Shown here: one piece after another, positions 11,546 through 59,503 of the stretch | Numbering within the stretch: position 1 is the first letter of the stretch | Layout: every line of letters starts with the position of its first letter | DNA from: Escherichia phage vB_EcoM_G4498 | Direction: 5' to 3' (one strand) | Sequence record: NC_054918.1 | DNA length: 64,000 bases | Made by a program: the position numbers and the translations under genes | Notes under the pieces: generated by a model | The model's input: the letters and a program-made list of their open reading frames with translations, nothing else | What the model was told of the DNA's origin: nothing | The model's database searches: none

Positions 11546-12148
11546 TTATAGATTAAATCCTTCAAAATCAAGAGTATAGATAGTGTATGTTGAATACTTT
11601 TTGTACTCATATCTATCTGCAATTCTAAATACACTTCCAGCTGGTATCATTACTTCTTGTTCATCTGAAACTAATTCCATATTACGATAACGATGGCTAT
11701 CTGGAAACTTAAAGTTTGGATTGTATTCTTTACAGCGTAGAGCTTTTATAGCATACTCCTGGAAATTGAATACCATAGGAGCTTTGAATTCAAAAATAAC
11801 TTGTGTGTTATACTCTAAACCGGAAGCAAAATGTAGAGCTATATTTTTATCATATGAAGCTGATACTACTTTATCAAATGTAATAATATCAATTCCTTGA
11901 TTTAATATTTGTTTAGTCTCAGCTGGAACACCTCTCCAAAGAGGTTTATCGTTTGGAACCAAACGAGATTTGATTATTTCATTTAACCAAGTATGGTCAT
12001 CTGGCTTATTAGTAATACAATGAATTAAAAGTTCAATTTCAGATAAATTAAACCCTTCAGAAAGTAATTCTTCACGAATAGAAGCACGCACCGATGCATC
12101 CATTGATTTTATTTTAAAATCTTTTAGTTGCATTACTGAGTATTTCAT
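11546..12148 (-). CDS. modA: ADP-ribosyltransferase ModA
   Basis: 200 aa (T4 ModA length); R-S-E pattern (LWRG, SASYD, SDEQEVMIP). Confidence 0.75.
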   Translation of the reverse strand: MKYSVMQLKDFKIKSMDASVRASIREELLSEGFNLSEIELLIHCITNKPDDHTWLNEIIKSRLVPNDKPLWRGVPAETKQILNQGIDIITFDKVVSASYDKNIALHFASGLEYNTQVIFEFKAPMVFNFQEYAIKALRCKEYNPNFKFPDSHRYRNMELVSDEQEVMIPAGSVFRIADRYEYKKYSTYTIYTLDFEGFNL

Positions 12149-12768
12149 TCAACTACCTCAATATCATAAACTTTAAATGTTCCAAATGAATCGTGTAATT
12201 TTTCTTTTGAAATAGAAGTTATTTTATACTTTCCAATTGGAATCATCCATTCTTGTTCACGCACAATCATCATTAAGTTATCAGTACGCTCTGAATCTAA
12301 TCCATCAGTATCTTCATACGTGTACTTAAACTCAGTATTAGGAGAAGAAAGTATAATATCGCTGATATGGTCAGAATAATTAAAAGCTTTATTAGTTTTT
12401 AAGCGAAGTATTATTTTAGTAAAATATTCAGCGTAAGAAAAAGAACATGCTGTGAGCAAACTAGTAGTAAATGAATCTACTCTATTCGTTGAAAACACTT
12501 CTCCGACTTGTAAATCTTTAATGAGTTCTTTTGTCGATTTTGATATACCACGATATAGCTGATAAGGCGATTTAGTTAAATGCTTTTTAACGATTTTATT
12601 CAACTGCCGATGAAGAGCTTCATTCTTTTTGGCTTCCATACATTGCCAAAGAACTGACTGCTCAAAGTCAGTAAATTTTTCACAGACCTTTTTATACATA
12701 TCATATTGAAAATCAACGCTTTCAGCTTTTATAGATAACTGTTCAACATCTGCAAGATTAATAATCAT
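12145..12768 (-). CDS. modB: ADP-ribosyltransferase ModB
   Basis: 207 aa (T4 ModB length); QLYRG, STN, REQEWMIP motifs; SD GGAGG upstream. Confidence 0.75.
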   Translation of the reverse strand: MIINLADVEQLSIKAESVDFQYDMYKKVCEKFTDFEQSVLWQCMEAKKNEALHRQLNKIVKKHLTKSPYQLYRGISKSTKELIKDLQVGEVFSTNRVDSFTTSLLTACSFSYAEYFTKIILRLKTNKAFNYSDHISDIILSSPNTEFKYTYEDTDGLDSERTDNLMMIVREQEWMIPIGKYKITSISKEKLHDSFGTFKVYDIEVVE

Positions 12769-58623: not shown

Positions 58624-58851
58624 TCATTTTGGTTTACCTTCTTTAACGAAATCAGGATAAGGATAAAATCCCGAATAAAATCCTTCACCTTTATGATTGA
58701 TGCATCCTTTATTAGAACAATAGCACCAATAATCGAAATCACAAGCCATTTCATCATTACATAAAGCAAAAACAACAGGCCATTTACACTTTTCACAATG
58801 GGCATTTTTAAGAATACTAGTTTGGCTCATAACCATGTAACCTTTAAGCAA
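58624..58851 (-). CDS. small Cys-rich hypothetical protein
   Basis: 75 aa with many Cys/His (CEKCKW...CNDEMACDFDYWCYCSNKGCINH). Confidence 0.45.
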   Translation of the reverse strand: MLKGYMVMSQTSILKNAHCEKCKWPVVFALCNDEMACDFDYWCYCSNKGCINHKGEGFYSGFYPYPDFVKEGKPK

Positions 58852-59054
58852 TATTCTTCTACGTGCTGTTTACGACCTTTCTTATCAATAAAGGTATATT
58901 CAACGAATGTTCCAATGTAGTCTTTATCTACATCATGTGGACTATTAATTGGACATTTAGTACGGCAAATGCGTTCCCATTGACGAATAATTACTGCTTT
59001 ATTCTTTGGGTCATATGGATGTGGATAATGTATATTCATAATAATGGTTCCCAA
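58827..59054 (-). CDS. small hypothetical protein
   Basis: 75-aa ORF. Confidence 0.45.
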   Translation of the reverse strand: MGTIIMNIHYPHPYDPKNKAVIIRQWERICRTKCPINSPHDVDKDYIGTFVEYTFIDKKGRKQHVEEYCLKVTWL

Positions 59055-59503
59055 TCAACAATCACAATTTCTAATTTAGAGGAATATGCATCTAAAATCC
59101 CCTCAATAATATCCCAGTTCCCTTTACCTATGCCTGCACCAATCCTAGGCATATAGATTGTAGGTTTAATCAGTTTATTTTCACCAAACTCATTTAATTC
59201 TAACATACAATTCATTAAAGCGGAATACTCAAAATTTGGCCCTGGTTGAAATTGAGTATAAAGGTTGAAGCAATACGCTTTATGAGTCCTAAAGTATTTT
59301 TCATAGACTGAGTAAGAACCGAGTTTAGTTACATCACCCCATTCAGTCTGTAATTTATCAGCTTCCAAAATTTTAGGGAAAGCTTTGGTTAATTGACCCG
59401 CTACGCCTGAACCCATAGTATGAAAACAATTACATCCATGCGCAATATTTTTACCTTCAGCGAAAAGGGCGACAATATCGCCCTTGATATATTTTACAAT
59501 CAT
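59036..59503 (-). CDS. macro-domain-like protein (candidate ADP-ribose binding / ADP-ribosylhydrolase)
   Basis: 155 aa; Gly-rich loops NIAHGCNCFHTMGSGVAGQ and PRIGAGIGKG resemble macro-domain signatures. Confidence 0.5.
   Translation of the reverse strand: MIVKYIKGDIVALFAEGKNIAHGCNCFHTMGSGVAGQLTKAFPKILEADKLQTEWGDVTKLGSYSVYEKYFRTHKAYCFNLYTQFQPGPNFEYSALMNCMLELNEFGENKLIKPTIYMPRIGAGIGKGNWDIIEGILDAYSSKLEIVIVDWEPLL

Follow-up and report, generated by a model that had tools for sequence, protein, structure and literature searches.

In the genome of Escherichia phage vB_EcoM_G4498 (NC_054918.1), we analysed a window of 64,000 nucleotides and identified the minus-strand open reading frame at 59036..59503 as the ortholog of T4 tk.4 (adfM). 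The gene would provide an early-transcribed, stand-alone macrodomain serving as an orphan-antitoxin-like counter-defence against DarTG2, and its product is likely an eraser of the ADP-ribosyl-thymidine made by DarT2, acting through Gln-dependent chemistry. The public T4 record has long carried the macro annotation, and the role against DarT was reported in 2025, so both are already known. The only new element is mechanistic, namely the Gln of T4-type AdfM at the position where DarG, TARG1 and the AdfM of PhiKZ have a catalytic Lys.

The coding sequence runs from ATG to TGA and encodes 155 aa, followed by the stop codon, with a single macro domain. The first-pass annotation had placed a 155-aa ORF here and left out its strand, which we found to be the minus strand. 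The protein of the window is identical to T4 Tk.4 (NP_049723, NC_000866; both 155 aa) at 154 of 155 residues (99%), the sole substitution being A139 in the window and T139 in NC_000866. At codon 36 (59398-59400), which lies in the loop-1 helix GVAGQ, both the window and NC_000866 have Gly36; in published work on T-series phage stocks aged 48 years, T4 sublines are listed as differing in tk.4 by a Ser36Gly missense change. The 3-kb stretch around tk.4 showed 99.4% identity to Escherichia phage 121/2022-2B, and 351 further phage records, mostly of Escherichia and Shigella phages, matched the same stretch at 95-99% identity.

The neighbourhood of tk.4 in the window contains the genes for thymidine kinase, vs, vs.1 and regB and is syntenic with that of T4, with vs upstream, tk.3 downstream and the start/stop overlaps likewise shared. 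From the sequence, the stop codon of vs and the start codon of tk.4 overlap in an ATGA (59500..59503, minus strand; T4 is annotated alike), an arrangement that provides translational coupling, and a Shine-Dalgarno-like GAGGA is located about 11 nt upstream of the tk.4 start codon. A second ATGA (59036..59039, minus strand) joins the tk.4 stop to the tk.3 start, and the ATG at this site is taken as the real start of tk.3 because the PHROG 2008 match begins at the sixth residue of the downstream ORF. Between tk and tk.4 there are three small ORFs in T4 and four in the window and its closest relative, OR958571; the extra one is a small Cys-rich ORF (58624-58851, minus strand, about 68 aa from the likely ATG, PHROG 2306) between the tk.2-like ORF and tk.3. 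Sequence scans returned 14 sigma-70 promoter sites against 16 expected from shuffled sequence, and 3 terminator sites against 1.8 expected, and thus nothing above expectation in either case. One of these three sites is a perfect 8-bp hairpin (AAGGGCGA / TCGCCCTT, 5-nt loop) at 59465-59485, within tk.4 codons 7-13, which was called as a plus-strand terminator-like site although every local gene is on the minus strand; it probably reflects chance or structure at the 5' end of the mRNA. In T4 omics data, tk.4 falls among the early RNAs and the middle proteins, which fits a factor needed when replication starts.

Profile search, the predicted fold and the conservation of the residues aligned to ADP-ribose contacts all indicate that Tk.4 is a macro domain. 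The Pfam Macro family PF01661 matched residues 22-132 with 27.7 bits (E 2.8e-6; gathering cut-off, 22 bits), and PHROG 335 matched the protein at 3e-65. The AlphaFold2 model (pLDDT 93.1, pTM 0.89) was an α/β/α sandwich with a mixed β-sheet, and not the non-macro fold that the first-pass annotation had named as the outcome speaking against its macro-domain call. Both of the Gly-rich loops on which that call was based are present in the translation, at residues 22-37 and 120-128. A Tk.4 profile built from 52 homologues and searched against the PDB matched Bt_1257 (2.3e-18), TARG1 (2.1e-14), SCO6735 (4.2e-14), Poa1p (7.4e-14) and DarG of M. tuberculosis (5.6e-13), and the nearest relatives in both structure and sequence belonged to the ALC1/TARG1-like macrodomain class. 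In public records the T4 protein (NP_049723) is labelled by RefSeq as 'phosphatase; contains A1pp phosphatase motif', and 'macro domain protein' and 'Poa1p-like family protein' are found elsewhere; the word 'phosphatase', used by both RefSeq and PHROGs, derives from the motif.

The predicted ADP-ribose site is formed by two loops, N-x6-GxGxA and GxG, which carry the expected ligand residues. Alignment to SCO6735 and TaqDarG placed the substrate-binding loop (loop 1, HGCNCFHTMGSGVAGQ) at residues 22-37, encoded by 59393..59440 on the minus strand, and the phosphate-binding loop (loop 2, PRIGAGIGKGNW) at residues 119-130, encoded by 59114..59149 on the same strand; the RIGAGIGKG stretch within the latter corresponds to residues 120-128. 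Of the 11 TaqDarG residues for which hydrogen bonds to ADP-ribose have been reported, Tk.4 shares seven: its N25, V34, Q37, T83, G122, G124 and G126 correspond to the ligands N22, V31, Q34, T79, G117, G119 and G121, respectively. The hhalign results likewise matched H22, N25, Q84, G122 and G124 of Tk.4 to H24, N27, Q85, G126 and G128 of SCO6735. We evaluated conservation in 258 fetched homologues drawn from many 50%-identity clusters. N25 and G33 of loop 1 were each kept in 257 of these and H22 in 245, and P119, G122 and G124 of loop 2 were each present in at least 255.

The third element of the site is the N80-L-Y-T-Q84 motif, whose last four codons (L81-Y82-T83-Q84) occupy 59252..59263 on the minus strand. 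Q84 was found in all 258 homologues, Y82 in 257 and T83 in 244. By hhalign and HMMER profile alignments, the Q84 codon (59252-59254, minus strand) takes the place of the catalytic Lys, Lys80 in DarG and Lys84 in TARG1; the catalytic Lys84/Asp125 dyad of human TARG1/OARD1 becomes Gln84/Gly126. For the position of Q84 we used these profile alignments, since they reproduce the equivalence already published for Q85, K80 and K84. A MAFFT alignment of Tk.4 and its PDB relatives was set aside because Bt_1257 and SCO6735 were out of register by two columns near the NxxxQ motif, and the single-sequence phmmer alignment of Tk.4 and Bt_1257 was ungapped and offset in the NxxxQ loop. A further residue, Asp49 (codon 59357-59359), was invariant in the Tk.4 family (258/258); the aligned residue is Tyr in DarG, in SCO6735 and, judged by motif, in Bt_1257, and it is Asp49 in yeast Poa1p.

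Homologues of Tk.4 are widespread. Using tblastn, we found them in 2845 of 50,697 phage records (about 5.6%) spanning many genera, with hosts including Escherichia, Klebsiella, Salmonella, Pseudomonas, Vibrio, Acinetobacter, Aeromonas, Campylobacter and others. The profile search yielded 17,739 representatives at E<=0.001; with the cut-off tightened to E<=1e-30 there were 1138 clusters (50% identity). Together with the Pfam and PHROG matches, the confident model and the expression in T4, this wide occurrence places tk.4 far beyond a chance ORF. Two homologues (P0073 and P0113; on contigs L002, 1927-2397, and L003, 6001-6480) are filed under bacterial MAGs; the contigs are in fact T4-like phage contigs, on which the homologues sit near the Rnl1 and PNKP RNA-repair genes, and no darT was found near either of them.

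The role against DarTG2 comes from genetics done by others and made public in a preprint; it was worked out in T4, not in vB_EcoM_G4498, and the growth conditions were special (M9 glucose, 30 °C). HIDEN-SEQ screening of T4 transposon mutants on DarTG2-expressing E. coli gave tk.4 as the single significant hit, a clean tk.4 knockout made T4 sensitive to DarTG2, and the gene was named adfM, anti-DarT factor Macrodomain (bioRxiv 10.1101/2025.11.20.689424). These results lend direct genetic support to a proposal of the first-pass annotation, that the protein counters DarT-like toxins, and the knockout is the very experiment, a deletion mutant on a DarTG host, that had been put forward to check it (bioRxiv 10.1101/2025.11.20.689424). 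The same text says of enzymatic ADP-ribose removal from DNA by Tk.4 only that it 'seems likely' (bioRxiv 10.1101/2025.11.20.689424). The literature searched yielded no biochemical assay of Tk.4, and the Aravind-lab survey of NAD/ADPr functions in viruses does not contain tk.4 under that name. The identity of the gene, its macro fold, its conserved binding site and the dependence of T4 on tk.4 when the host carries DarTG2 are thus established here or elsewhere, and we infer the removal of ADP-ribose by the Tk.4 enzyme and the role of Gln84 in it.

In the mechanism that we propose, host DarT2 would ADP-ribosylate thymidines in the single-stranded DNA of the infecting phage and so block replication. 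The two Gly-rich loops of Tk.4 would bind the ADP-ribose, and the enzyme would hydrolyse the thymidine-ribose bond, restoring the template. Its chemistry is likely Gln-dependent and Lys-independent, as in Streptomyces SCO6735: Gln84, held by Asn25, would position the distal ribose for attack by an activated water. Tk.4 would thus differ from DarG and TARG1, which use Lys as the nucleophile. Q84, N25 and D49 are clear targets for mutagenesis. Because Tk.4 has neither the Lys of DarG and TARG1 nor the Lys34 and long Lys89 loop of SCO6735, efficient DNA de-ADP-ribosylation is not guaranteed.

The absence of the canonical catalytic Lys would also suit a chiefly non-catalytic Tk.4, an antitoxin mimic that counters DarT2 by attaching to the toxin itself or by covering the modified or target DNA. 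In line with this, the dead Q85A mutant of SCO6735 still inhibits DarT in vitro (PMC9411070), and AdfB of ICP1 counters DarT, likely by direct interaction. However, the K80A form of the isolated TaqDarG macrodomain gave no DarT inhibition, which required the C-terminal domain that Tk.4 does not have. Moreover, Q84, N25 and the phosphate-loop glycines are kept over 258 homologues of many phage groups, which points to an active site and not to a toxin-specific interface. We therefore regard a mainly non-catalytic Tk.4 as unlikely.

It is decidedly unlikely that Tk.4 acts primarily on small molecules in the manner of Poa1p, as an ADP-ribose-1''-phosphate phosphatase or O-acetyl-ADP-ribose deacetylase. 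To our knowledge, T4 has no pathway generating Appr-1''-p, since its RNA repair leaves no 2'-phosphate, and we count this against such a role. The same applies to the residue of Poa1p at the Q84 position, presumably Ser and not Gln; the alignment of the two proteins reaches only residue 98 of Tk.4 and is offset where the Q84 stretch is covered. What suggests the role is the 'phosphatase' label, which was taken from a motif and not from an assay, and the only tk.4 phenotype found in the accessible part of the preprint is specific to DarTG2.

The first-pass annotation had noted genes for ModA and ModB in the same phage, and we located modA at 11546-12148 (minus strand, 99% identity to T4 ModA) and modB at 12145-12768 (minus strand, 96% identity to T4 ModB), in a region (11546..12768) matching PHROG 832, RNA polymerase ADP-ribosylase. 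Their co-occurrence with tk.4 in one genome, and the precedent of Legionella MavL as an arginine-specific macrodomain, would be in keeping with the suggestion that Tk.4 takes off the ADP-ribose (or RNA) that Alt, ModA and ModB of the phage itself attach to host proteins, and so makes the marks reversible. The residue modified by Alt, ModA and ModB is arginine. For the ALC1/TARG1 class, in contrast, the substrates on record are Glu/Asp esters and ADP-ribose linked to thymidine in DNA, and modA/modB lie about 47 kb from tk.4, with no co-transcription. In addition, the homologues occur in 2845 phage records of many genera, a count made on tk.4 alone, and the accessible part of the preprint describes tk.4 depletion only for the DarTG2 host (bioRxiv 10.1101/2025.11.20.689424). 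The suggested reversal of own marks thus gained no support and is very improbable, and modA and modB are genomic context outside the proposed tk.4 mechanism. Hardly any credence can be given to the degradation or sequestration of NAD-derived immune signals (e.g., the gcADPR of Thoeris) or other ADP-ribose messengers, likewise raised and likewise left unsupported: the ThsA match was much weaker than the hydrolase-class match, and no genetic evidence was found, tk.4 being a hit for DarTG2 only in the accessible part of the preprint (bioRxiv 10.1101/2025.11.20.689424).

Returning to Tk.4 as a probable eraser of DNA thymidine marks, we compared it with the known systems. Within T4 itself, AdfN (gene 30.3) and AdfA are other counter-defences against DarT toxins that follow the same orphan-antitoxin logic. 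AdfN has a NADAR fold unrelated to the macro fold and acts on the guanine-linked ADP-ribose made by DarT1; it covers DarTG1 and, according to the preprint, gives no protection against DarTG2 (bioRxiv 10.1101/2025.11.20.689424). We rejected tk.4 as a candidate for the published T4 orphan antitoxin against DarTG1, which is AdfN, the NADAR protein of gene 30.3. Yeast Poa1p, a small-molecule phosphatase, shares with Tk.4 an H-x-C-N-C motif (HSCNC aligned with HGCNC) and Asp49; the His mutated in its H23A structure (PDB 6LFS) belongs to this motif.

The preprint calls Tk.4 a homolog of DarG, the antitoxin of DarTG2 (bioRxiv 10.1101/2025.11.20.689424). The DarG macrodomain (PDB 5M31/5M3E/5M3I) has the catalytic Lys80 where Tk.4 has Gln84, and the K80A mutation inactivates TaqDarG. 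DarG further carries a C-terminal DarT-binding domain and has darT next to it, whereas Tk.4 consists of the macro domain only and has vs and tk.3 as neighbours. The NCBIfam DarG equivalog NF048014 matched Tk.4 with 30.4 bits (equivalog cut-off, 250 bits) and only over its macro part, 2-147 of 338, and the PADLOC DarG model gave 36.1 bits. With weak, macro-only matches far below the cut-off and neither Lys80, the C-terminal domain nor darT, Tk.4 was rejected as a DarG, and the Gln in place of Lys makes 'DarG homolog' an imprecise description.

PhiKZ gp104, also named AdfM, is like Tk.4 a stand-alone phage macrodomain directed against DarTG2 (PMC13309987), and it de-ADP-ribosylates DarT2-marked DNA in vitro (Cell Rep 2026, PMC13309987). 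It is DarG-like, with the Lys motif FPTKDNW, whereas Tk.4 is of the Gln type; it also enters the phage nucleus, a structure that T4 does not have. BLASTP aligned only 23 residues of the two proteins (E 0.005), and hhalign gave 96%. Judged by their sequences, T4 Tk.4 and PhiKZ gp104 are non-orthologous members of different subclades that were independently given one name, AdfM.

SCO6735 of Streptomyces coelicolor (PDB 5E3B) and Bacteroides Bt_1257 (PDB 2FG1/2AFC) are Gln-type ALC1-like macrodomains with 20-29% identity to Tk.4, which are defined by the exchange of Lys for Gln (PMC9411070). SCO6735 cleaves the dT-ADPr formed by DarT, both in vitro and inside cells. Activity is lost in the Q85A mutant and almost lost in N27S, a water-mediated mechanism has been proposed, and Lys34 and the mobile-loop Lys89 help to hold the DNA (PMC9411070). 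Q84 and N25 of Tk.4 match Q85 and N27 of SCO6735. However, the mobile loop of SCO6735 with Lys89 (and Lys93/94) is five residues longer, the insertion lying directly after Q84 of Tk.4 by hhalign, and Bt_1257 has a six-residue insertion relative to Tk.4 by HMMER. Lys34 of SCO6735 is Ser32 in Tk.4, and the invariant Asp49 of the Tk.4 family is Tyr in SCO6735 and Bt_1257. By these alignments, Tk.4 fits the subclass only partly, with the Gln present and the long loop absent. Gln84 and Asp49 in all 258 homologues, the short loop and the Poa1p-like HxCNC may tentatively be read as marks of a distinct, phage-specific ALC1-like branch, a Lys-independent eraser of thymidine ADP-ribose in DNA unlike DarG and PhiKZ AdfM and perhaps with wider substrates. 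If so, a range extending to other nucleic-acid or small-molecule ADP-ribose adducts would explain the presence of Tk.4 in about 5.6% of phage records. With Tk.4 as the thymidine eraser, T4-like phages would possess separate erasers for the two DarT chemistries, the NADAR protein AdfN for guanine and the macro protein Tk.4/AdfM for thymidine.
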